Shown piece by piece: positions 20,409 through 31,332 of a stretch of 32,000 nucleotides of DNA (positions are counted from its first letter, which is position 1; every line of letters starts with the position of its first letter). This stretch comes from Desulfobulbus propionicus DSM 2032 (GTDB lineage: Bacteria; Desulfobacterota; Desulfobulbia; Desulfobulbales; Desulfobulbaceae). Under the pieces are notes generated by a model. The model made no database searches and was not told where the DNA came from. It saw only the letters and a program-made list of their open reading frames with translations. Both the position numbers and the translations under genes were made by a program. The DNA is taken from positions 2,490,001 through 2,522,000 of the forward strand of contig NC_014972.1 in NCBI RefSeq assembly GCF_000186885.1, written 5' to 3'.

Positions 20409-21362
20409 ATGGATACGAACCTTCCGGCGACATTCGACTTCACCTTCACACTCCTTGGCACGTCGCAACTCGACTTTCCCGATCACTTCATCGATTTTCT
20501 GTATCACGAATGCACGGATGCGTTGATCGTTGAGAGCTTGCAAAAAGTTGGCCTGACGCAACCATTGCCTGTCCGGCAGATTGCACCTTCACGCTATCAA
20601 CTCCTGGCCGGTTATCCCTATCTGCCAGCGATCAGGGATCTAGGGATCGATGAGGTTTATTGCCAACTCGTTTCCCCTGCCACCCCATTGTTCAATATCA
20701 CGTACCTGCAAATCGTTCATAGCTTGTCAACGGTCCGCAACAGTCCGGTCTTGCAAGCCCATCTTTTGCAAGAAGCGCAGCAAATCCTTGCCGACCATGA
20801 AGTAATGAAATTGTTGTCGGCCATGGGACACAAACCTCAACGGTACAAGCTGCAAGAACTTCTTGGTGTGCTACAATTAGAATCATTGGTCGTATTTGCC
20901 CTGCATAATGGGACCCTATCCTTAAAAGTTGGCAAACAATTCGCTCGTCTTTCCGAAGGAGATCAACGTTATCTGATGAAATTGATCGATACTTATCGCC
21001 CAGGAGGCTCAAAGCAGCAGAAACTGGTAGAGATGATAATCGAGATCTCTTTGCGAGAGGGCAAGTCCGTGAGTGATCTTGCAGAGGAATGGTTCAGGAC
21101 AGAAAAGGAGATCGATCAAGACAATATCCCGCAACAGCTGCAACAGCTTTTACGCTACCTGGACCACCGCTCTTCACCGGGAAAAAATGCGGCAGAAAAA
21201 AAATTCAGGCAGCTCATTCAAGAGCTGCAACCACCTGACCGAATAACGATTGAACACTGCCTTTCTTTTGAAGACGAAAGCCTGGAAGTTCGTCTGCAAT
21301 TTCCCGACAGCGACTCTCTGCGGCGGCAGTGGCCGGCTATCATCAATTGCACCACCCCTTGA
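20409..21362 (+). CDS. hypothetical protein with a divergent ParB-like N-terminal domain and ParB-like HTH region
   Basis: 317 aa. ESLQKVGLTQPLPVRQIAPSRYQLLAGYPYLPAIRDLGIDEVYCQLV follows the ParB N-domain pattern (..G..qPi.Vr....y.liaGeRR.rA....G...v...v). LLGVLQLESLVVFALHNGTLSLKVGKQFARL resembles the ParB HTH/linker. The match was made by eye only. Confidence 0.4.
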   Translation: MDTNLPATFDFTFTLLGTSQLDFPDHFIDFLYHECTDALIVESLQKVGLTQPLPVRQIAPSRYQLLAGYPYLPAIRDLGIDEVYCQLVSPATPLFNITYLQIVHSLSTVRNSPVLQAHLLQEAQQILADHEVMKLLSAMGHKPQRYKLQELLGVLQLESLVVFALHNGTLSLKVGKQFARLSEGDQRYLMKLIDTYRPGGSKQQKLVEMIIEISLREGKSVSDLAEEWFRTEKEIDQDNIPQQLQQLLRYLDHRSSPGKNAAEKKFRQLIQELQPPDRITIEHCLSFEDESLEVRLQFPDSDSLRRQWPAIINCTTP

Positions 21363-21452: not shown

Positions 21453-21499
21453 AAAAAAAAGCCGAGAAAACCAGTTATCGCCCTGGTTTCCATCGGCTT
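21453..21499 (-). terminator. rho-independent terminator ending NrfD-like/MerR-like operon copy 1
   Basis: On the minus strand, AAGCCGA..AAACCAG pairs with CTGGTTT..TCGGCTT as an interrupted stem, followed by T8. On the plus strand this is A8 at 21453-21460. It lies 26 nt downstream of the MerR-like stop. Confidence 0.7.
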
Positions 21500-21524: not shown

Positions 21525-21944
21525 TCAAGCCGCCTTCGAATCGGCCTTCTGCACTTTTTTGATTTTCTGCTTGTCGATTTTCTTGGGGACCAGGGCATTG
21601 GCCATGAACGCTGTGCACTGTTTGCGTTTTTCAAAAGGACAATCGGTGATATTCCAGCAAGGTGTGTACTGGAGCAACTTTTTCACGGCGGCAATGGATA
21701 CACCATGTTCGTGGATCATCTCCCGCAGACACTCGATCCATTTGATATCGTTCATGGTGTAGTACCGCCACTTCCCCTTGCGCAAGGGAGCAACCAGCCC
21801 CTCTTCCTCATAAATCCGCAAGGTCCGGGGATGCACCCCAAGCATCTGCGCCGCTACCCCGATGGTAAATATCGCTTTTTGTTCATCAACCATTTCAACC
21901 CTCGCAATGGTAAATTCATGACCGTTCCCCAAGGGAACGGTCAT
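21525..21944 (-). CDS. MerR/HspR-type HTH regulator with a conserved four-Cys cluster (copy 1)
   Basis: The HTH is FTIGVAAQMLGVHPRTLRIYEEEGLV, with wing and alpha3-4 NDIKWIECLREMIHEHGVSIAAVKKLL. This is followed by PCWNITDCPFEKRKQCTA and a Lys-rich tail. The Cys are at 72/96/102/110. An alternative start at 21893 is preceded by GAGGG. By eye it is about half identical to the 28573..29016 product across the core. Confidence 0.8.
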   Translation of the reverse strand: MTVPLGNGHEFTIARVEMVDEQKAIFTIGVAAQMLGVHPRTLRIYEEEGLVAPLRKGKWRYYTMNDIKWIECLREMIHEHGVSIAAVKKLLQYTPCWNITDCPFEKRKQCTAFMANALVPKKIDKQKIKKVQKADSKAA

Positions 21945-21965: not shown

Positions 21966-23150
21966 TCAATGCGCCTCGTGCTCGGTGAAACTCTTGCCAA
22001 AGAATCGTTCGCCCTGAAGGAAGGCTATGCCGGTCAAACCGATACCCGCCATGACCACAAGCCACTCATATCCAGATGGTGTGTAGGTAAGATAGGTGGG
22101 TAAATTATCATAACCGGCATATTGAGGCACGATCTGCCCACCAACCACCATGTTGAGCCGGGAGACAAACATGCCAACCAAGGTCATCAACGCCGCGGTC
22201 GACATGGCCGCCACGCTCTTTAAACGGCTGAGAAGAAGCAGAACGACTGGCGCCGCCAGTCCGACTCCGACCTCAAGTGCCCAGAAATTGAATGACAGCG
22301 GACCGATATAAAGAGCATTGGCAGCGATTTTTCCGTCATTGACGCCTCCGACATAGAACGAAGCCATTCTCCAGAAGGTGGAGACAGCAACCAGGATCAG
22401 CATCAGCAGCAATACCTTGCCGGCAGCGTGCACACCTTCAAAAACATGCTGTTCCATCTTGCGGCCACGAATGACATAGGCATAGTGGGTGAAAAGAATG
22501 GCTGCAGCCGCCCCGGATAGAAAGGCGCAGGCGAGGAAATACACCGGCAATTGGGCCCCATACCAAAACGGTCGAGCGGCTAGGGTGGCGAACACCCCAC
22601 CCAAACAGGTGTTGGCCGCAACCTCGGCCAAGGCGCCGAGAATGCCAAGCACCAGGGCCAAGGTGTAATGGCGGGTGAGGATAAGCCAGAACTCAAGAAG
22701 AATGAAACCAAGCGCCAAACCGTACAGCGTGCCCATCCACCAAATGTTGGAAGTGATGTTTGGCGAAATGATATTGTAGATCGCCATGCGCCATGGACTT
22801 TCGATTTCCATGCCGATGACCGTGAACCCGCTGAGGATGGTGATCAAGGAGATCCACACCATTCTGTTGGCCAGGGGAGCCAGTTTGTTGCCGCCGAACA
22901 CATGGCTGATCGCCGCCAACAAACACAATCCCGTGGAGGTGATGGCAAAAAAAGCGTACGTGGAAATCAAAAGCCCCCAGGGAACTTCACGTGTGTTGTT
23001 GAATATATGTTCATGACCAATAAAAAAACCAACTAGGCCGACACCAACGCCGACGATCAAAAGTAACCCGAAAATACCGGATAAGGTTTTTACCAGGGGA
23101 CTCGCCACCTCCGGTTCAGCTGTTGCAGTCAGTGAAAATCCGTTTGCCAT
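21966..23150 (-). CDS. NrfD/PsrC-family polytopic membrane protein (quinone-interacting subunit type), copy 1
   Basis: 394 aa and highly hydrophobic, with roughly 10 TM segments. It carries the NrfD-type signatures REVPWGLLISTYAFFAITSTGLC and EIESPWRMAIYNIISPNITSNIWWMGTLYG. The RBS is AAGGAGG. It is a paralogue of 29102..30295. Confidence 0.85.
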   Translation of the reverse strand: MANGFSLTATAEPEVASPLVKTLSGIFGLLLIVGVGVGLVGFFIGHEHIFNNTREVPWGLLISTYAFFAITSTGLCLLAAISHVFGGNKLAPLANRMVWISLITILSGFTVIGMEIESPWRMAIYNIISPNITSNIWWMGTLYGLALGFILLEFWLILTRHYTLALVLGILGALAEVAANTCLGGVFATLAARPFWYGAQLPVYFLACAFLSGAAAAILFTHYAYVIRGRKMEQHVFEGVHAAGKVLLLMLILVAVSTFWRMASFYVGGVNDGKIAANALYIGPLSFNFWALEVGVGLAAPVVLLLLSRLKSVAAMSTAALMTLVGMFVSRLNMVVGGQIVPQYAGYDNLPTYLTYTPSGYEWLVVMAGIGLTGIAFLQGERFFGKSFTEHEAH

Positions 23151-23431: not shown

Positions 23432-23484
23432 TGGTTTCCCCCTTTTCGTTATCTGCCGATGAAGCGTTTCGATGCCTTTGACAA

Positions 23485-23500
23485 CGCAAGGGATATGCCA
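23485..23500 (-). promoter_or_regulatory. sigma-54 (-24/-12) promoter
   Basis: The minus strand reads TGGCATATCCCTTGCG. This matches TGGCAY-N5-TTGC with the exact GG-N10-GC spacing. The GC lies 55 nt upstream of the ATG at 23431. Confidence 0.65.
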
Positions 23501-24091
23501 CCTGGATATGCGAGCGCCTTCTTTTCACGAAAGAATGACATAACGACTTGAAGTTACGTTTGTTTTACAATCTACAACAATTTGTTTTTAAGTTTTCAGT
23601 CCATCTACGATTGTCAATATTTTACTGGTACACGATCAAAATTAGCCCACATGCCACACTACGATTGATCAAAATACGCCTGATCTTTTCCGTGACACCA
23701 AGGGGACGCATGCATACTCCCAGGAAAAAAACGTCAATAATTTCAAACGATATCGTCCAGCAAGGCCAAAACTACCAACCCATGCCTTTCTTTACCGCTT
23801 CCGATAACAAAAGAACGGCTTCAAAAAAATATCTATAAATTCAATGTATTATAAAAAGCCAGCCACACGAGCGGCGCATTTCAAGTCCATCCAGACAAGA
23901 AACCACGCAACGACAGGGGACCGCTTCAAGGGAACGGTAGAGGGGTACCGTCATCGATACTCCACGAACCAATGAGTTAATCAAACAGGAAGGGAGGGGG
24001 GAGAGAGTGACAAGCCATGCTAGGTGTCGCGGAAAGAGTTGGAACCGCTATTGTCAGGAAAGTTGTCAATAGCGGTGGAGAGCTGAAAGGG

Positions 24092-24116
24092 CGGGACGGG
24101 CAGGACACCCGTCCCG
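24092..24116 (-). terminator. terminator-like GC hairpin after the cytochrome gene
   Basis: CGGGACGGG (24092-24100) pairs with CCCGTCCCG (24108-24116). It lies 18 nt downstream of the stop at 24134 and is followed on the minus strand by CCCTTTC. A second 10-bp inverted repeat, ACCGCTATTG/CAATAGCGGT, sits at 24044-24076. Confidence 0.5.
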
Positions 24117-24133
24117 ATATGCTGAGCGGACGA

Positions 24134-24853
24134 TCAGTGTTCTTTTTTCCCGTGGTCCTTGCCTTCGACTTGGGCCGCGCCGGCAAATTTGCGCTCGAAT
24201 CCCTTTACGCCAATGTGACAGGTGGTACAACGGGTGTTGGAGGCAAAGGCGTCGGTGCCGTTATGGCAGACACCACAGTATTTGCCCGCATAGAGCGCCT
24301 CCATGGTAAATTTTTCTGGATGTTCTTCGGCTGCACCTTTGCGCATTTCAAAGGCCTTATCATGGCAGCTGGCACAGTCAAGCCCCATGTCAACATGCCC
24401 CTTGTGCTCGAATATGACCGATTTCACGGGAACATTAAACACAATGGTCTCCGGCTGCTTCATATCGCTACCATGGCAGACCTTGCAGGTTTCTGGTCCG
24501 GTGGTGTTGAACGCCATTTTGCCATCATGGCAGGCACCGCAGTATTTGCCGGCATCCAGGGAAGCCATGTTATAATCGCCCTTGGCCTTGGTTGATCCGC
24601 GTTTGCGCTCAAAGAGATCGGGGTGACAGCTGTCACAACTCAAGCCAGCGGTCACCACATGGGATTTGTGGCTGAACATCTCCTTGACCGGTTCCACAGC
24701 GATCACCTGGGTTTGGCCATAGGATTCAAATTGCTTGTCCTGGGCGGGCGGCTGTGCTGCGGTCGGGGCAGTTGCCTGAATATCGGCGGTGCACAATACC
24801 CCTGCGGCGACAAGAAGACCAAGGGCTGCGAGTATTTTCGTTTTTGTGTTCAT
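24134..24853 (-). CDS. periplasmic hexahaem cytochrome c (two tandem c7/c3-like trihaem domains)
   Basis: It has a signal peptide, MNTKTKILAALGLLVAAGVLCTA. There are six CxxCH motifs: CDSCH, CGACH, CKVCH, CASCH, CGVCH and CTTCH. They fall into two repeats of the pattern F.HK.H.....L.C..CH...F........GKYCG.CH.G..AF....C..CH. Confidence 0.9.
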   Translation of the reverse strand: MNTKTKILAALGLLVAAGVLCTADIQATAPTAAQPPAQDKQFESYGQTQVIAVEPVKEMFSHKSHVVTAGLSCDSCHPDLFERKRGSTKAKGDYNMASLDAGKYCGACHDGKMAFNTTGPETCKVCHGSDMKQPETIVFNVPVKSVIFEHKGHVDMGLDCASCHDKAFEMRKGAAEEHPEKFTMEALYAGKYCGVCHNGTDAFASNTRCTTCHIGVKGFERKFAGAAQVEGKDHGKKEH

Positions 24854-24874: not shown

Positions 24875-25630
24875 TTAGGCATTCATATAAAAGACATTGG
24901 GCAAGGCGCCGGTTTCCGGCCGCAGGACCCAGACCGTTGTTTCCGGCCGATGCACCAGTTTATAGACCTCGCTGTTTGGATCGCTGAGATCGCCGAACAC
25001 CCGGACCTTAGCCGGACAGGCTTCCACGCAGGCTGTGTCTTTTTTCCCTTTGGACAAGCGGGTGTCATAGCAGAAATTGCATTTATCGACCGCGCGAATT
25101 TCTTCATTGAAGTACCGTGCATTATAGGGACAAGCGGCCATACAGGTCTTGCAGCCGATGCATTTCTTGCTATCCATGACCACGATACCGGTGGTTTTAT
25201 CCTTGTAGGTGGCCACGGTGGGGCAAACGCGGACACAGGGCGGCTCGTTGCACTGGTTGCAGAGCACGGGCATGAATATTGTCTCTTTTTCTTTGGGTCC
25301 GATCTCCCGGACTCTTTCCAGGATCATGGTCCGCCAACCATAGGGAGGCACATGGTTGGTTTGGACACAGGCCTCCATGCAGCGTTCGCAATCGACGCAG
25401 AGATTCTGGCGCATGACCATGCTGTAATGAGGGCTGTAGGGGTATTTCTCGGTCTTTGGCGGAGCGCCCACAGCACTTTCGGCGTTGCGAACGCTGGTCA
25501 GCGACAGTATCGTCCCCCCCATGAACAATCCGGTAATGGCGAGTCCGGCGCGCAAAAAGGTTCGGCGCTCAAGTGAAGGCAGGTGTTCCACACCTTCATT
25601 GTTTAATTTTTCCAGCTCATTAATGTTCAT
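24875..25630 (-). CDS. Tat-exported 4x[4Fe-4S] ferredoxin-type subunit (NrfC/PsrB/HybA/HmcB family)
   Basis: The twin-arginine signal is SLERRTFLRAGLAITGLFMGG. There are four cluster motifs: CVDCERCMEAC, CNQCNEPPCVRVCP, CIGCKTCMAACP and CNFC...CVEACP. Confidence 0.9.
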   Translation of the reverse strand: MNINELEKLNNEGVEHLPSLERRTFLRAGLAITGLFMGGTILSLTSVRNAESAVGAPPKTEKYPYSPHYSMVMRQNLCVDCERCMEACVQTNHVPPYGWRTMILERVREIGPKEKETIFMPVLCNQCNEPPCVRVCPTVATYKDKTTGIVVMDSKKCIGCKTCMAACPYNARYFNEEIRAVDKCNFCYDTRLSKGKKDTACVEACPAKVRVFGDLSDPNSEVYKLVHRPETTVWVLRPETGALPNVFYMNA

Positions 25631-25973
25631 TCCATACCCTCAAGATAAAAAGTAACGAAGACGACATCGGCACCTTGTGCTACAATGTGTTGTTATGGCC
25701 CGAAAAAAAAAGCCCTAGAATGAATAGCCACTCATTAATTAAAAAATGCAACGAGGGAACATAACCCAAAACCAAGAGAAGAGCAAGTTTTCAAATATAT
25801 GCTATAGTAAGGCAACTTCGCACAGCCAATTTTCACTCCTGGCACCCGTTGCGGCGGAGTGCCGCTGATGCAATCGAAATCAGTGTTTCGTTTCTCGCAC
25901 GGCTGAATCTTTTTATCCCGGAATGTGAACTGTTGACCGGTTCGCGCTTCCCTCCACCAAGCGGCGGCTGACC

Positions 25974-28379
25974 ATGAATAAAAATCTTTCCCGGGAACAC
26001 CCTGTGTTCCAGAACACATTGGCGGTATTCTCCCTTGACCGCGACTGCCGGATCATCGGGTTGAATAAAAATGCAGAACTGCTCACCGGTCGGCCCTTAG
26101 GCGAATTGTTTGGCAAATCAATGGATGAGCTCCTGCTGTTCAAAGGACAAACCGTCAATTTGGCCGAACTCTTCTCCCAGGCGGATTGGGAACAATCGCT
26201 TTCCCGCCAGTCCCTCTTGCTGCAGACTGACCAGGAAATCCGTCCCATCGACGTCCTGGCCACGGTGACCCCATTATGGGATCGCCACCGCGCGCTCTGC
26301 GGCGCGCTTGTCACCCTGGACAGCACCAATGAATCGCTCTATCACCAACTGCTTCTGGACAGCGTCTCCGAAGGCGTGCTAACCGTCAACCGCGACATGG
26401 AAATCATCTCGTTCAACCGCGCAGCGGAAGCGATCACCGGTTGGAAGACCGAGGAAATTCTCGGCAAGAACTGTCAGGATGTCTTTCCGGAAGAACTGTG
26501 CGAAAACGGCTGTCTGATTCGCTCCTCGATCGAGCGGGAGCAGTCGTTTGCGGCCCAGACCGTATTCATGACCCATAAGGACGGTCGGTTTTTCCCCCTG
26601 TCGCTAACCTCCTCGCCGCTCTACGATCTCAACGGCAAGGTCATCGGCGGAGTACAGACCTTTCATGATTGCTCCGACAGCCTCAACAATGCCTTGATCC
26701 TGGCTTCGGTGGCCGACGGCGTGTTCACCATCGACCGCAACCGGACCATCACCTCCTTCAATCGAGCGGCGGAATCGATCACCGGCTGGAAACAGGAAGA
26801 GGTGATCGGTAAACCCTGCAACGAAATTTTCCATTCCAGCGTCTGCGGCAGCGACTGCATGCTGATGAAGGCTATCGACCGCAACAACATGTACATCGAC
26901 CGGTCCATCTTCATCAAGGGCAAGGCGGGCAATTCCATCCCGGTGACCATCAGCTCGGCGCCGTTGTTCGACGATTTCGGCAATATCATCGGCGGCATCG
27001 AAACGTTCCGCGACAACACCTCCTCCATCCGTGAAAGCCTGATCCTTGATTCCATAGCCGATGGCGTGTTCACCGTGGACCGCAACTGGAACATCACCTC
27101 GTTCAACAGGGCCGCCGAGGAGATCACCGGCTGGTCACGGGAGGATGCCATGGGCATGTCCTGCTCAGACATCTTCCACTCGTCGATCTGCGGCAAAAAC
27201 TGCGCCATCGCCGAAAGCCTCTACAGCGGCAAACCGGTGGCCAACCGCTCGATCACCATCCGCAACAGTCAGGGGGAAAAGGTGCCGATCAGTATCAGCG
27301 CCGCCCCGCTCACCGATCATGAAGGCAACATTATCGGCGGGGTGGAGACCTTCCGCGATCTGACCGCGATCACCAGCCTGCGCCAGCAATTGAGCCAGAA
27401 ATATACCTTTGACGCGATCATCTCCAAGTCAGCCGCCATGCAGCGGCTGTTCAACATTCTTCCGGAAATCGCCCGCAGCCCCAGCACCGTGCTCATTCTC
27501 GGGGAATCCGGCACCGGCAAGGAATTGGTCGCCAGGGCGCTCTACAATGCTAGCGAACGCAAGGACAAGCCCTTTGTGGTGGTCAACTGCGCGGCCCTGC
27601 CGGAAACTCTGCTTGAATCCGAACTGTTCGGTTACAAGGCCGGCGCCTTCACCGATGCCCGCAAGGACAAGATCGGCCGTTTTGCCGCCGCCGAGGGCGG
27701 CACACTGTTCCTCGACGAGATCGGCGACATTCCCGGCGCCGTTCAGGTCAAACTGCTGCGCGTTCTCCAGGAAAAGGTCTACGAGCCGCTGGGCTCCAAC
27801 ACGCCGGTCAAGGCCGATGTGCGCATCATCACCGCCACCAACCGCAACCTCCAGGCCCTGGTCAAGGAAGGAGCTTTCCGCGACGACCTCTTCTACCGCC
27901 TCAATGTGGTCAAAATCAACCTGCCGCCGTTGCGTGAACGCAAGGAGGACATCCCGTTGTTGATCGATCACTTCATTAAAAAATACAGTGCCCAACAGGG
28001 TAAGGACATCGTCGGTATATCCAGCGGCGCCTTGGCCATCCTCATGCGCTACGACTATCCCGGCAACATCCGTGAATTGGAAAATATTGTCGAATATTCC
28101 TTTATCCTCTGCGAAGGCGGCTATATCCAACCCCAACATCTGCCCGAACCCTTTGCCGCCGGTTTCGAGCAACCCGCCTCCCGCGCCGTGCAGGATGACG
28201 GGCCGCAGACGCTTGAGGAGATCGAAAAACAGGCGATCATTCTCAGTCTGGAGCGCAACCGTTGGCGCAAGATGGCCACCTGCCGGGAACTGGCGATCTC
28301 CAAGGACACTCTGCGCCGCAAGATCGAACGCTATGGTATCCACAATCCGCTGACGGGCGAAGCCGAACAGGAAGAATAA
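25974..28379 (+). CDS. sigma-54-dependent transcriptional activator (bEBP) with four N-terminal PAS domains, an AAA+ sigma-54 interaction domain and a Fis-type HTH
   Basis: 801 aa. Walker A is GESGTGKE, the GAFTGA loop reads GAFTDA, and Walker B is LFLDEIG. RVIAATN-like (RIITATN) and FRDDLFYRLNV are present. The C-terminal HTH is ATCRELAISKDTLRRKIERYGI. Confidence 0.92.
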   Translation: MNKNLSREHPVFQNTLAVFSLDRDCRIIGLNKNAELLTGRPLGELFGKSMDELLLFKGQTVNLAELFSQADWEQSLSRQSLLLQTDQEIRPIDVLATVTPLWDRHRALCGALVTLDSTNESLYHQLLLDSVSEGVLTVNRDMEIISFNRAAEAITGWKTEEILGKNCQDVFPEELCENGCLIRSSIEREQSFAAQTVFMTHKDGRFFPLSLTSSPLYDLNGKVIGGVQTFHDCSDSLNNALILASVADGVFTIDRNRTITSFNRAAESITGWKQEEVIGKPCNEIFHSSVCGSDCMLMKAIDRNNMYIDRSIFIKGKAGNSIPVTISSAPLFDDFGNIIGGIETFRDNTSSIRESLILDSIADGVFTVDRNWNITSFNRAAEEITGWSREDAMGMSCSDIFHSSICGKNCAIAESLYSGKPVANRSITIRNSQGEKVPISISAAPLTDHEGNIIGGVETFRDLTAITSLRQQLSQKYTFDAIISKSAAMQRLFNILPEIARSPSTVLILGESGTGKELVARALYNASERKDKPFVVVNCAALPETLLESELFGYKAGAFTDARKDKIGRFAAAEGGTLFLDEIGDIPGAVQVKLLRVLQEKVYEPLGSNTPVKADVRIITATNRNLQALVKEGAFRDDLFYRLNVVKINLPPLRERKEDIPLLIDHFIKKYSAQQGKDIVGISSGALAILMRYDYPGNIRELENIVEYSFILCEGGYIQPQHLPEPFAAGFEQPASRAVQDDGPQTLEEIEKQAIILSLERNRWRKMATCRELAISKDTLRRKIERYGIHNPLTGEAEQEE
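26337..27362 (+). repeat. three tandem ~345-nt (115-aa) PAS-domain-coding repeats inside the bEBP gene
   Basis: DSVSEGVLTVNRDMEIISFNRAAEAITGW (aa 129), ASVADGVFTIDRNRTITSFNRAAESITGW (aa 244) and DSIADGVFTVDRNWNITSFNRAAEEITGW (aa 359) recur at an exact 115-aa period. Each ends in (V/I)IGG(V/I)(Q/E)TF(H/R)D. Confidence 0.8.
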
Positions 28380-28572: not shown

Positions 28573-29016
28573 TCAACCGGACGATTGGTGCTTTTTTTTT
28601 TGCCCGGGTTCGCCCCGACTCTGCCGATCCTTTTCCTTGGCCTCCAGCCGGGCGGCCGCATCACCTACCGGATGCAGCGTCCGCGGCACGGCCCGATCGA
28701 CCTTGGCCGTGCACTGTTGCTGGATTTCTGCTGGACATCCAGCCACTTCCCAGCAGGGAACCAAATCGAGCAGCTTTTTCAGCCCCGGAATACTGATCCC
28801 CTCTTCATGGATAAAGGTGCGCAGACAGGTTATCCATTGAATATCATCGGCGGAAAACATCCGCCGGTTGCCGACAAGGGTCGGCTTGATCAATCCTTCC
28901 TGTTCATAAATCCGCAACGTCCGCGGATGCACATTCAGCAACTTGGCGGCGACTCCGATCGGATAGATAGGCACATCGGACCGTATCGCCTGTATTTCCG
29001 TTTTCTTTCTTGCCAT
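28573..29016 (-). CDS. MerR/HspR-type HTH regulator with a conserved four-Cys cluster (copy 2)
   Basis: 147 aa with the RBS GGAGG 6 nt upstream. The core is IYPIGVAAKLLNVHPRTLRIYEQEGLI...DDIQWITCLRTFIHEEGISIPGLKKLL..PCWEVAGCPAEIQQQCTA. The Cys are at 64/88/94/102, the same C-x23-C-x5-C-x7-C spacing as copy 1. Confidence 0.8.
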   Translation of the reverse strand: MARKKTEIQAIRSDVPIYPIGVAAKLLNVHPRTLRIYEQEGLIKPTLVGNRRMFSADDIQWITCLRTFIHEEGISIPGLKKLLDLVPCWEVAGCPAEIQQQCTAKVDRAVPRTLHPVGDAAARLEAKEKDRQSRGEPGQKKKHQSSG

Positions 29017-29047: not shown

Positions 29048-29084
29048 GACGGAGCGGCAAGCTGTCAGCGCCTGCCGCTCCGTC
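29048..29084 (-). other. 12-bp perfect GC-rich hairpin between NrfD-like copy 2 and MerR-like copy 2
   Basis: GACGGAGCGGCA (29048-29059) pairs with TGCCGCTCCGTC (29073-29084) around a 13-nt loop. No U-tract follows on the minus strand. It is flanked by a direct CTGTCAG repeat. Confidence 0.5.
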
Positions 29085-29101: not shown

Positions 29102-30295
29102 TCAGTGCTCTTCGGACAGATGACCGCGGAACAGCCGTTCGCCCATCATGAAGAGGATTCCGCAGAAGGTAAAGCCGGACAGGGTCACCATCCACTCGTG
29201 CAAGGTCGGCGCATAGGGCAAAATATGCGGCAGATCAACAATATTGAATTGATGAAACCCGGGAATGATTTGCCCAACGATCACCAGATCGTAGCGCATG
29301 ACGAAGATGCCGATGATGCTGGCCAGCGAGCCGAGCGCCATGGCCGTCAGGTTCTTGGCCCGAACCGCAAGGATGATCAGGAAGGGGATGACCAGCCCCA
29401 GAGCAACCTCGCCATACCAGAAATTCTTGGCAAAGGGACCGTTGATCAGGGCCATGATCGCCTCGTATTTTCCCGGCGGATGACCGGAGATACCGGAGAT
29501 CAATTTCCAGGTGGTGAAGAACATGATGATGAGGTACAGCAACGCTCCCAGTTTGGCCACAGAACGCAGGGACTCCTGCAGCTGCTCGCTCATCTTCCAG
29601 CCGTTGATCTTATACCCCAGCCAATGAAAGAAAATCACCGTGGCGCACCCGGACATCATGGCCGAGGTGATGAAGTAGATCGGCATATAGGGGCCATGCC
29701 AGAACTCACGGCCATTCAGGAGTCCAAATACCGCCCCGAGATTGGAATGAGCGGCAACACCCGAAATAACGCCCAATAGACCGCACATGCCGGCAATCTT
29801 ATGCCTGCCGGCCTGCAACAGGGCAAACTCGATCAGCATGAAGAACAGGTAGGCGCCGTACAACGTGCCCATCCACCAAATGTTGGAACTGAGATTCGGG
29901 GAGATGATGTTGTAGATAGCCATGCGCCAGGGATTTTCAATCTCAAAGGCGATGACCAGAAAACCCGCCACAATGGTGGCAATGGCCAGATAGACCGAAC
30001 GTTTGGCAATGGGCTTGAAGGCCTCGAAGCCGAACACATGGCCAATGGACGAAACCAGACACAGCCCTGTCGAGGTCACGACAAAAAAGACGTAAGCGCC
30101 CAGCATCAGCCCCCATGGGACTTCGCGGGTGACACCATACACATGTTCATGGCCGGCAAACATGGCGTGCACGCCAAAGGCGATTCCCACCAGGGTGAAC
30201 AGACCCAACAGACCGATCACGCCGTTGTACACGCTGGACCGGCTCCCTTCAAGCCCCCCTTCCTGGGGCAGAACCTTGGTTAATATATTTTCCAT
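29102..30295 (-). CDS. NrfD/PsrC-family polytopic membrane protein, copy 2
   Basis: 397 aa with the RBS AAAGGAGAAGG. It shares long blocks with copy 1: REVPWGLMLGAYVFFVVTSTGLC, EIENPWRMAIYNIISPNLSSNIWWMGTLYG and MVVGGQI/LVIVGQI. No FeS or cytochrome gene is adjacent. Confidence 0.85.
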   Translation of the reverse strand: MENILTKVLPQEGGLEGSRSSVYNGVIGLLGLFTLVGIAFGVHAMFAGHEHVYGVTREVPWGLMLGAYVFFVVTSTGLCLVSSIGHVFGFEAFKPIAKRSVYLAIATIVAGFLVIAFEIENPWRMAIYNIISPNLSSNIWWMGTLYGAYLFFMLIEFALLQAGRHKIAGMCGLLGVISGVAAHSNLGAVFGLLNGREFWHGPYMPIYFITSAMMSGCATVIFFHWLGYKINGWKMSEQLQESLRSVAKLGALLYLIIMFFTTWKLISGISGHPPGKYEAIMALINGPFAKNFWYGEVALGLVIPFLIILAVRAKNLTAMALGSLASIIGIFVMRYDLVIVGQIIPGFHQFNIVDLPHILPYAPTLHEWMVTLSGFTFCGILFMMGERLFRGHLSEEH

Positions 30296-30391: not shown

Positions 30392-30508
30392 TCAGGGCAA
30401 ATCGCTTTCTTCTCGCAAAGACTGAAGAACCGGCTTGATTCTCAGATCAAACAGCGTATGGAGAACAGCACCACCCAACCAGATAACGAAAAAAATAAGA
30501 GCTTCCAT
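30392..30508 (-). CDS. candidate 38-aa single-TM peptide upstream of NrfD-like copy 2 (too short for the ORF track)
   Basis: Hand translation gives MEALIFFVIWLGGAVLHTLFDLRIKPVLQSLREESDLP. A strong RBS, AAGGAG, lies 6 nt before the ATG at 30508. Position and architecture (TM then acidic tail SLREES) match the 77-aa ORF of copy 1 (tail SLASEEN). Confidence 0.4.
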   Translation of the reverse strand: MEALIFFVIWLGGAVLHTLFDLRIKPVLQSLREESDLP

Positions 30509-31332
30509 TTGCTTCTCCTTGTTCCGGATCTCCGGACAGTTGTTGTGCACCAGGATTTATTGGCGGATAAACACCCGGTTGATTGTCTTTTGCGCGGCAC
30601 CTCCTTGCGATGCGACCCGGCACCATTCTGCGGCTGCCGGATCTGGTCCTCGAATATTTCCTTGCTGCTTTTTTATCCAGCGGCGAATACGCTGTCAAGA
30701 AAAACAACGGTCGATTGTTAAAAAATATGTAAATAAATAGATCAATATTCGCCCGATAAAAAGATTTCAACTTGCATGCGAAATAAATATTTTCGATATT
30801 ATCCACCGCAATTATTTGTATATATTTATTTTTAGGCATTTTTATTCAATAATTAATCAAGACACCACTACCCTTTCCCCGAAATAGCAATCCAACTCGC
30901 GGTTCTCATTATGCGTCTAAAAAATAACATTATGATCAAAATGCGCCCACACTGTTCACCCTCTCCGCAACCGCAGGTTCCCGGTATCCCTCAGAACCGG
31001 ACCAAAGGGGCAGAATATCGACCTGATAGAAAAGAACACCCGAGCAGCAGGTAATGCTTGACTATGGAACAAATACTGCAAATGATATTTTTAGCTACTC
31101 GCCTTCATCCAGATGACGAGCGAGCTTCCTTTTTCCCCTTCAAGGTGGCGGCCTTGGAGGGGATTTCTTTTCCCCTCCCCTTCCTCCGGCTTTACCTTTA
31201 CCGCGATTTATGGTAGCCCTGATCAGACATGCCGCTTGCTTGGGCGGCCGTGGCCTTGGGCCTCCCGCCCGCGCCATCGTCAACTTTGGGCGCATTTTTT
31301 CCATCGTCTTGTTCATTCCCCAGGAGCCTTGC

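Follow-up and report, generated by a model that had tools for sequence, protein, structure and literature searches.

Two MerR-family proteins with a C-terminal cysteine module beside NrfD genes of Desulfobulbus propionicus: candidates for a new class of redox sensor

Among MerR-family regulators, SoxR is to our knowledge alone in having an established Fe-S cluster. It is a [2Fe-2S] redox-sensing transcription factor in which a MerR-type winged helix-turn-helix (HTH) is followed by a long alpha5 coiled coil of its own and then by a four-cysteine site, C-x2-C-x-C-x5-C, near the C-terminus. The present analysis concerns two genes, merR1 and merR2, in a 32,000-nucleotide (nt) stretch of the genome of Desulfobulbus propionicus DSM 2032 (NC_014972.1, positions 2,490,001-2,522,000, forward strand), hereafter called the window. 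In their products, P1 and P2, a putative four-Cys site (C1 to C4, in order from the N-terminus) comes after a MerR-type winged HTH, as in SoxR. In contrast to SoxR, they have no coiled coil, their Cys residues are spaced C-x23-C-x5-C-x7-C, and the first Cys lies in helix alpha3. P1 and P2 are paralogues and belong, with GlnR, TnrA, and HspR, to the short MerR-family branch that lacks the coiled coil. They may represent a Cys-based, probably Fe-S, redox-sensing MerR variant that controls the adjacent NrfCD-cytochrome module, a reading to which we give about an even chance.

GlnR and TnrA (PDB 4r4e, 7tea, and 4r22), which are the closest solved structures, also lack a dimerisation coiled coil, and their activity is controlled by a C-terminal tail. 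However, they have no Cys module, GlnR has Glu at the position of C1, the tail binds glutamine synthetase, and their contexts are those of nitrogen metabolism. Outside the MerR family, the Rrf2-family regulators IscR, NsrR, and RsrR resemble P1 and P2 in having a three-Cys triad with 5- to 7-residue spacing C-terminal to a winged HTH and a variable fourth ligand; they belong to an unrelated DNA-binding fold family, and the likeness is one of functional analogy, not homology. FNR, whose dimerisation and DNA binding respond to O2 through a labile cluster bound by four Cys, is similar in the proposed mechanism only, being a CRP-family protein with a different fold. The hmc respiratory complex includes NrfC- and NrfD-like subunits (HmcB and HmcC). 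The [4Fe-4S] ligands of NsrR are C93-x5-C99-x5-C105 and Asp8 (PMC9338935), and Rrf2, the founding member, was discovered downstream of the hmc respiratory operon (Keon et al. 1997, cited in PMC9338935). No literature was found on the subfamily of P1 and P2, on the two-CW domain described below, or on any link between MerR and NrfD.

P1 and P2 share 49% identity across 108 residues (E = 3e-40). Translation of the open reading frames (ORFs) places Cys at residues 72, 96, 102, and 110 in ORF 21525..21944 and at 64, 88, 94, and 102 in ORF 28573..29016 (both on the - strand), exactly as an earlier note on this DNA had reported, and neither has any further Cys. The start that the note took for P1, at 21944, appears to be 17 codons too far upstream. 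P1 homologues are mostly 122 amino acids (aa) long with the N-terminus MVDE(K/Q)KAIFTIG, a GAGG Shine-Dalgarno sequence stands 5 nt upstream of the ATG at 21893, and the alternative ATG at 21944 falls within a 27-bp hairpin-forming palindrome. The true start is therefore most likely the ATG at 21893, and the four Cys of P1 are C55, C79, C85, and C93 in the 122-aa numbering. In both proteins, the alpha4 region (..KKLL..) leads directly into P-C-W-x4-C-P-x6-C-T-A and then into divergent basic tails, which agrees with the earlier description.

Homologue searches for P1 and P2, which took in 5.8 billion proteins, yielded separate orthologue sets from Desulfobulbus, Desulfogranum, Desulfolithobacter, and many metagenome-assembled genomes (MAGs) of the Desulfobulbales. 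For each paralogue, 120 90%-identity cluster representatives among the matches listed were aligned to a common profile. C1, C2, and C3 were Cys in 120/120 and C4 in 119/120, with the same counts for the P1 and P2 sets. The earlier note had named loss of these Cys from homologues as a finding that would speak against its proposal; since C1 to C4 are kept in 119 to 120 of the 120 representatives per paralogue, the four-Cys pattern, as judged by these counts, far exceeds chance. When 1.84 billion 50%-identity cluster representatives were searched with a profile, 466 clusters at E <= 1e-10 defined a wider family, and column counts were made on the best 149 of the 466. The aligned C-x5-C-x7-C triad occurs in 99 of these 149 representatives, which come from several phyla. 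Trp stands directly after C2 in 92 and Pro directly before it in 84 of the 99 triad-bearing representatives, in which acidic residues at +2 and +9 and Arg at +11, counted from C2, are also frequent. The family motif derived from these columns reads LLxLxPCW(E/D)(I/L)xxC(P/S)x(E/D)xRxxCxA(Y/F), and in these alignments C-x5-C-x7-C stands out as the invariant core of the wider family.

By their HTH, P1 and P2 are assigned to the MerR family, as the earlier note had concluded from a normal winged HTH in both: Pfam MerR_1 (PF13411) scores 65.2 bits for P1 and 56.2 bits for P2 against a cut-off of 21.6, and Pfam MerR (PF00376) scores 44.9 and 39 bits against 28.2. By curated cut-offs and motifs they fall outside HspR, SoxR, CueR, ZntR, MerR, GlnR, and TnrA. 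The SoxR model (TIGR01950) reaches 19.8 bits against a cut-off of 116.9, and C-x2-C-x-C-x5-C is absent from both proteins. The CueR, ZntR, and MerR models reach 20-27 bits against cut-offs of 147-168, with no C-x7-C or C-x8-C metal-loop pair present, and the NCBIfam TnrA model reaches 28.6 bits against 140. The Cys pattern is thus unlike the known metal and redox motifs of the MerR family, a point on which the earlier note was right.

HspR calls for separate comparison. It is a short MerR repressor with a similar recognition helix and the best-scoring curated family for both proteins; public records label their relatives merely "MerR family transcriptional regulator" or "HspR," and JGI uses "MerR/HspR." Yet P1 and P2 score 67.9 and 62.9 bits against the cut-off of 105 for NCBIfam NF047375. 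A search of the window for the HspR-associated inverted repeat (HAIR) operator, CTTGAGT-N7-ACTCAAG, brought up nothing with fewer than 4 mismatches and nothing close to the merR genes. No dnaK, clpB, or groE gene neighbours the two genes, which are surrounded by nrfD, nrfC, and cytochrome genes, and their synteny is strictly with nrfD. We know of no HspR that bears this Cys module. That P1 and P2 are ordinary HspR heat-shock repressors that happen to have Cys is scarcely credible, and the name "HspR-type" used for them in the earlier note is better dropped.

The fold of P1 was predicted by AlphaFold2 from a 50-sequence alignment and assessed by predicted local distance difference test (pLDDT) and secondary structure. 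The mean pLDDT was 84.8, with 97-98 in the HTH core, about 77-85 in the Cys segment, and low confidence in the tail. After alpha4 (residues 67-76), the model contains short helices of 4-5 residues (79-83, 87-90, and 94-98) and no long alpha5 or dimerisation helix, so the long alpha5 antiparallel coiled coil by which classical MerR proteins are recognised, and at the end of which their effector site lies, is missing, as the earlier note had supposed. GlnR/TnrA are the closest solved structures by sequence (E = 8e-11) and the closest folds by Foldseek (template modelling score of 0.78-0.89, normalised on the target). The P1 fold also matches the HTH domains of NmlR, CueR, and SoxR, and full-length alignments to CueR, BmrR, and PbrR give root mean square deviations of 12-15 A. 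A sequence search of the PDB with a profile of the Cys module returned nothing at E <= 10, nor did any PDB entry match the module by fold. W52 and C55 share one face of alpha3 in the P1/P2 family, which would fit that face as the docking surface for the Cys module. In all three aligned GlnR PDB sequences the position of C1 is Glu, so that this face of alpha3 would be polar in relatives without the module.

The module is also found in larger proteins. In longer relatives, C4 is followed by x9-(P)CW-x7..10-C-x4..6-C-x2-C-x-Y, and 24 of 87 motif-bearing representatives have 7-8 Cys. These relatives share P-C-W...C...C...P-C-W...C...C-x2-C with the uncharacterised two-CW domain (NCBIfam NF045718, 80 positions), which matches long forms weakly (10-18 bits against a cut-off of 35); the best match, to P0246, covers the whole model length at 17.8 bits (E = 0.003). 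P1 and P2, with one CW each, have no NF045718 match at E <= 0.01. The module extends beyond P1 and P2, in which it corresponds to the first half of a broader, uncharacterised module that is Cys-rich and two-CW-like. A profile search with the two-CW region for other architectures, limited by word seeding, gave five matches, all of them N-terminally truncated MerR-CW fragments. Fusions of the MerR-CW unit occur as well, to a thioredoxin-like domain in some relatives (P0272, P0276, and P0278) and to a response-regulator receiver in others. In the predicted structure of the long two-CW form P0246 (locus L081; model m61e07ae9e2be), a 46-residue helix (123-168, pLDDT 63-80) follows the Cys-rich region, and some family members may thus keep a dimerisation helix after the Cys module.

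At their ends the long forms have C-x2-C, which is typical of a Zn knuckle, and AlphaFold2 folds the P1 module confidently without a cofactor. Both points suit an unlikely alternative, in which a structural Zn(II) merely folds the C-terminal module in place of the coiled coil and regulation comes through, for example, a partner protein on the basic tail. The nearest relatives of P1 and P2 are indeed partner-controlled short MerR proteins (with glutamine synthetase for GlnR/TnrA and DnaK for HspR), and P2-type tails hold a conserved motif, VD-x-A-x-P-R-x-L-H-x-x-G-D. However, P1 and P2 have no CxxC pair, C-x5-C-x7-C is an unusual spacing for Zn ribbons, the gene contexts of the family are overwhelmingly redox or respiratory, and all of the named source organisms, a small sample, are lineages or MAGs from anoxic habitats. 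The conserved Cys and the thioredoxin-like fusions would also suit a metal-free thiol-disulfide switch, in which oxidation links the four Cys and alters DNA binding as in OxyR- or Spx-type sensing. We hold this to be improbable, because four invariant Cys with an invariant Trp and Pro exceed the needs of a disulfide switch, and because the three-Cys members and the 7- to 8-Cys long forms resemble cluster or metal sites.

The genomic setting was compared in 80 loci from Desulfobulbaceae, Desulfurivibrionaceae, and Desulfocapsaceae. In these 80 Desulfobulbales loci, the gene order is kept as a sigma54 activator followed by nrfC - cytochrome c - small ORF - nrfD - merR (- nrfD2 - merR2). Wherever the sequence is available, nrfD, the gene of a quinone-linked membrane protein, stands immediately upstream of merR1, one locus and contig-edge cases apart, and the second pair, nrfD2-merR2, is kept in Desulfocapsaceae-type loci. 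The genomic link to the adjacent membrane proteins, to which the earlier note had pointed, is very strong. Beyond the 80 loci, the nrfD-merR adjacency recurs in two further lineages (L081 and L091): the gene of P0246, a protein with 44% identity to P1, has an NrfD gene downstream of it, and P0414, of a separate cluster, has the layout activator, nrfC - c7 cytochrome - nrfD - merR, with merR beginning at the base after the nrfD stop. More distant relatives adjoin cydAB, OsmC, and rhodanese genes (in Bacteroidota); multihaem cytochromes and rhodanese; a CbcL-like cytochrome c-cytochrome b fusion; a Tat (twin-arginine translocation) molybdopterin oxidoreductase with NarJ-like, Fer4_11, and cytochrome b genes; hypA, hypB, and hypF; or an ArsP_2/CDF/FeMo-co-like/ParA-like cluster (in Acidobacteriota). 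Since the neighbours even of distant relatives are respiratory or metal linked, the family travels with anaerobic respiratory and metallo-cofactor genes, and these contexts agree with a redox- or metal-responsive role. The features of the window are collected in Table 1.

Table 1. Genes, protein segments, and candidate control elements around merR1 and merR2 (coordinates in the window)
Feature	Position	Strand	Remarks
merR1 (P1)	21525..21893	-	122 aa from likely true start; maximal ORF to 21944, 139 aa
P1 MerR-type winged HTH	21666..21869	-	Residues 9-76 of the 122-aa form; Pfam MerR_1, AlphaFold2 pLDDT 97-98
P1 first Cys (C55; C72 of ORF)	21729..21731	-	In helix alpha3
P1 Cys module P-C-W-x4-C-P-x6-C-T-A (C79, C85, C93)	21609..21662	-	AlphaFold2 pLDDT ~77-85
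merR2 (P2)	28573..29016	-	147 aa; orthologues uniformly 147 aa
P2 four-Cys span	28711..28827	-	C64 in alpha3; C88, C94, C102 in PCW-x4-CP-x6-C
nrfD1, NrfD/DsrP-like membrane protein	21966..23150	-	Pfam NrfD 100.9 bits; immediately upstream of merR1
nrfD2, second NrfD-like gene	29102..30295	-	Pfam NrfD 106 bits; immediately upstream of merR2
Small membrane-protein ORF, 77 aa	23198..23431	-	First gene of small ORF-nrfD1-merR1; tblastn matches in most loci; no Pfam match
Hexahaem cytochrome c, two c7-type domains	24134..24853	-	Pfam/NCBIfam, synteny
nrfC, NrfC/DsrO-like Tat Fe-S protein	24875..25630	-	Pfam/NCBIfam, synteny
Sigma54 activator, four PAS-family matches	25974..28379	+	Divergent from nrfC; Pfam, synteny
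Sigma54-type promoter TGGCATATCCCTTGCG	23485..23500	-	Sole strict match in the 32-kb window; 54 bp upstream of small ORF
Terminator-like hairpin and T-run	21466..21491	-	Downstream of merR1
Tandem palindromes	23681-23664 and 23649-23632	-	~150-200 bp upstream of sigma54 promoter; degenerate in the window
GC-rich hairpin-forming palindrome ATGACCGTTCCC-TTG-GGGAACGGTCAT	21918..21944	-	27 bp; between nrfD1 stop and merR1 start
18-bp palindrome AATGAGT-GGCT-ATTCATT (- strand reading)	25719..25736	.	~90 bp upstream of nrfC; candidate operator

A sigma54-type promoter precedes the small ORF and a terminator-like hairpin follows merR1, so that merR1 closes a sigma54-dependent operon made up of the small ORF, nrfD1, and merR1. 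The promoter element TGGCAY-N5-TTGCK upstream of nrfD1 is kept in about 60 of the 77 loci scanned, and the probable driver of the promoter at 23500 is the divergent PAS-sigma54 activator. The tandem sites upstream of this promoter read GGGCGCA-N3/4-TGCGCCC in relatives, and a similar GGGCGCA/TGCGCCC-like site lies upstream of nrfD2 (30949-30932). These sites probably belong to the PAS-sigma54 activator rather than to a MerR protein. About 700 bp of non-coding DNA (23432-24133; GC content about 0.45) separate the cytochrome c gene from the small ORF. Besides the activator sites and the sigma54 promoter, this gap holds a terminator-like hairpin (23875-23862) and a conserved TTGACAAT block (23617-23610); a gap of about 500-1200 bp is retained here in nearly all orthologous loci. 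Most of loci L001-L062 have a stable stem at the nrfD1-merR1 junction that differs in sequence, which indicates that the structure is conserved and the sequence is not. This hairpin may stabilise the mRNA between the cistrons or act as an attenuator, and so set the NrfD:MerR ratio. Between nrfD2 and merR2 (about 29050-29080) there is a similar stem.

Several neighbouring features deserve mention in their own right. Three PAS domains of the sigma54 activator each hold C-x8-C-x3-C (KNCQDVFPEELCENGC, KPCNEIFHSSVCGSDC, and MSCSDIFHSSICGKNC) and may be metal-, Fe-S-, or redox-sensing domains. The 77-aa ORF encodes a single-pass protein and is found upstream of nrfD1 in Desulfobulbaceae and Desulfocapsaceae and downstream of merR1 in Desulfurivibrionaceae (L031-L062). 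In a section of a 2026 paper that names no regulator, a TMH1-DsrOh-DsrPh-tetrahaem locus is set out for cable bacteria and for some members of the Desulfobulbales (PMC13047784). This locus may be related to the P1/P2 respiratory module, and the 77-aa ORF may be the "TMH1" of the cable-bacteria DsrOhPh-tetrahaem locus. Just upstream of nrfD2, a small ORF (30392-30550, - strand) probably encodes a hydrophobic peptide of 38 aa (MEALIFFVIW...) and has a GGAG ribosome-binding site; in L091, the gene of a similar peptide (MKGVIFLTCWIGCAILHTIYDLKLKPVLKD...) precedes nrfD. Beyond an HU gene and downstream of it, an ORF of 317 aa (20409-21362, + strand) has a weak, sub-threshold match to ParB_N only (E = 6.5e-4).

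The MerR fold, the lack of a coiled coil, the conserved Cys, the synteny, the sigma54 promoter, and the respiratory or metal contexts of distant relatives are observations. A model built on them has to infer that a cofactor is bound and what it is, how it is sensed, which operator is used, and in which direction regulation runs. The module P-C-W-x4-C-(P)-x6-C, of about 20 residues, would occupy the place of the long dimerisation helix of classical MerR proteins and dock on helix alpha3, where it and the alpha3 Cys would jointly bind one cofactor per subunit. An Fe-S cluster would be the most likely cofactor and Zn its chief competitor; conserved Cys are needed for a Cys-ligated cluster but do not suffice to show one. 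Its presence or redox state would set the fold of the C-terminal module and hence dimerisation or DNA affinity, which would make P1 and P2 redox or O2 sensors by analogy with Rrf2-type regulators, FNR, and SoxR. The likely targets would be the genes that travel with merR, namely, the nrfC-cytochrome c operon and the nrfD units. As the last gene of the sigma54-dependent operon, merR1 would be expressed along with the gene of the membrane anchor, and its product could go on to gate the sigma70-type promoter of nrfC and the cytochrome gene.

A sigma70-like promoter is conserved upstream of nrfC, and the candidate operator would be the conserved 18-bp palindrome at 25719-25736. Operators were sought by exact inverted-repeat counting and alignments. 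The arms of the palindrome, AATGA(A/G)T-N4-ATTCATT, are invariant in 15 aligned loci and lie about 90-115 bp upstream of nrfC in L001-L026; the palindrome is kept across Desulfobulbaceae loci, and a separate lineage (L091) has ACTGAAT-N4-ATTCAGT upstream of nrfC. The merR-CW gene of Acidobacteriota has TGACAAT-N4-ATTGTCA 37 bp upstream. In the nrfD1 leader, ACTCCC-N5-GGGAGT is specific to Desulfurivibrionaceae and absent from the window. Inverted-repeat counting and alignments tied none of these candidates to P1 or P2.

Several observations weigh against the model of P1 and P2 as Fe-S sensors acting on the nrfC promoter. The window has one copy of the palindrome at 25719-25736, a number no higher than chance would give, and its 5-4-5 core geometry also suits CRP/FNR-type factors. 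In the Desulfurivibrionaceae a different palindrome, TTGACA-N8-TGTCAA, overlaps the -35 box and the spacer of the nrfC promoter immediately before its -10 box, and an additional one, GCAATTAAT-N6-ATTAATTGC, follows it; the clade-specific HTH substitutions V13T, Q16K, G32N, and K41Q are compatible with an operator switch and prove nothing. No operator common to the nrfD1 and nrfD2 upstream regions was found, save the probable sigma54-activator sites. On the protein side, no Fe-S or metal-binding Pfam or NCBIfam model matches the Cys module, the matching models covering the HTH alone. The alpha3 Cys (C1) is present in 111 of the 149 wider-family representatives and absent from about 25%, so that the "strictly conserved" Cys cluster of the earlier note holds for the orthologues and not for the family as a whole, and six wider-family representatives have the triad alone, that is, three Cys. 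Pro directly follows C3 in 111/120 and 119/120 orthologues and in 42/99 wider-family members and is thus not conserved family-wide.

This last residue also bears on haem. A Cys-Pro dipeptide is a haem regulatory motif, prevalent in the orthologues, and the locus of P1 and P2 encodes a hexahaem cytochrome, whose output could be matched to the haem supply by such a sensor. With Pro after C3 in fewer than half of the triad-bearing family, and with the other three invariant Cys left unexplained by the motif, haem sensing is very improbable. As to C1, its loss in about one-quarter of the wider family implies that the site may be Cys3 + X. Among the 87 scorable triad-bearing representatives, an extra Cys 10 residues after C4 was commoner where C1 was lost (15/21) than where it was kept (25/66; Fisher p = 0.011, a value that takes no account of phylogeny), which hints that alternative fourth ligands exist in the family. 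The safest description is a putative Cys3 core with a variable fourth ligand, which in P1 and P2 is probably C1.

A different role for the module also has to be considered. Each MerR-CW protein could be the cytoplasmic signalling partner of its own NrfD, with the Cys module and tail docking on NrfD or on the complex; release to DNA or sequestration would then follow the redox state of the quinone pool or the electron flux. Such a relay from a membrane complex to transcription would be analogous to that of GlnR/TnrA with glutamine synthetase and of HspR with DnaK. It would explain why nrfD-merR acts like an inseparable two-gene unit that was duplicated together (nrfD1-merR1 and nrfD2-merR2) and recurs in L081 and L091. 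We consider this quite unlikely.

P1 and P2, read as Cys-based redox sensors, are a well-supported candidate for a new redox-sensor class, whose functional steps we infer throughout. If the reading is true, they would be the second Fe-S type in the MerR family, differing in architecture from SoxR. The new class would have no coiled coil, would carry its Cys triad directly after the HTH, and would be spread over several anaerobic phyla, where the present labels, "MerR family transcriptional regulator" and "HspR," hide the family. It would also give a handle on the control of the poorly understood NrfD-type respiratory modules, among them the DsrOP-like cytochrome loci of Desulfobulbales, which are now under discussion for cable bacteria (PMC13047784).

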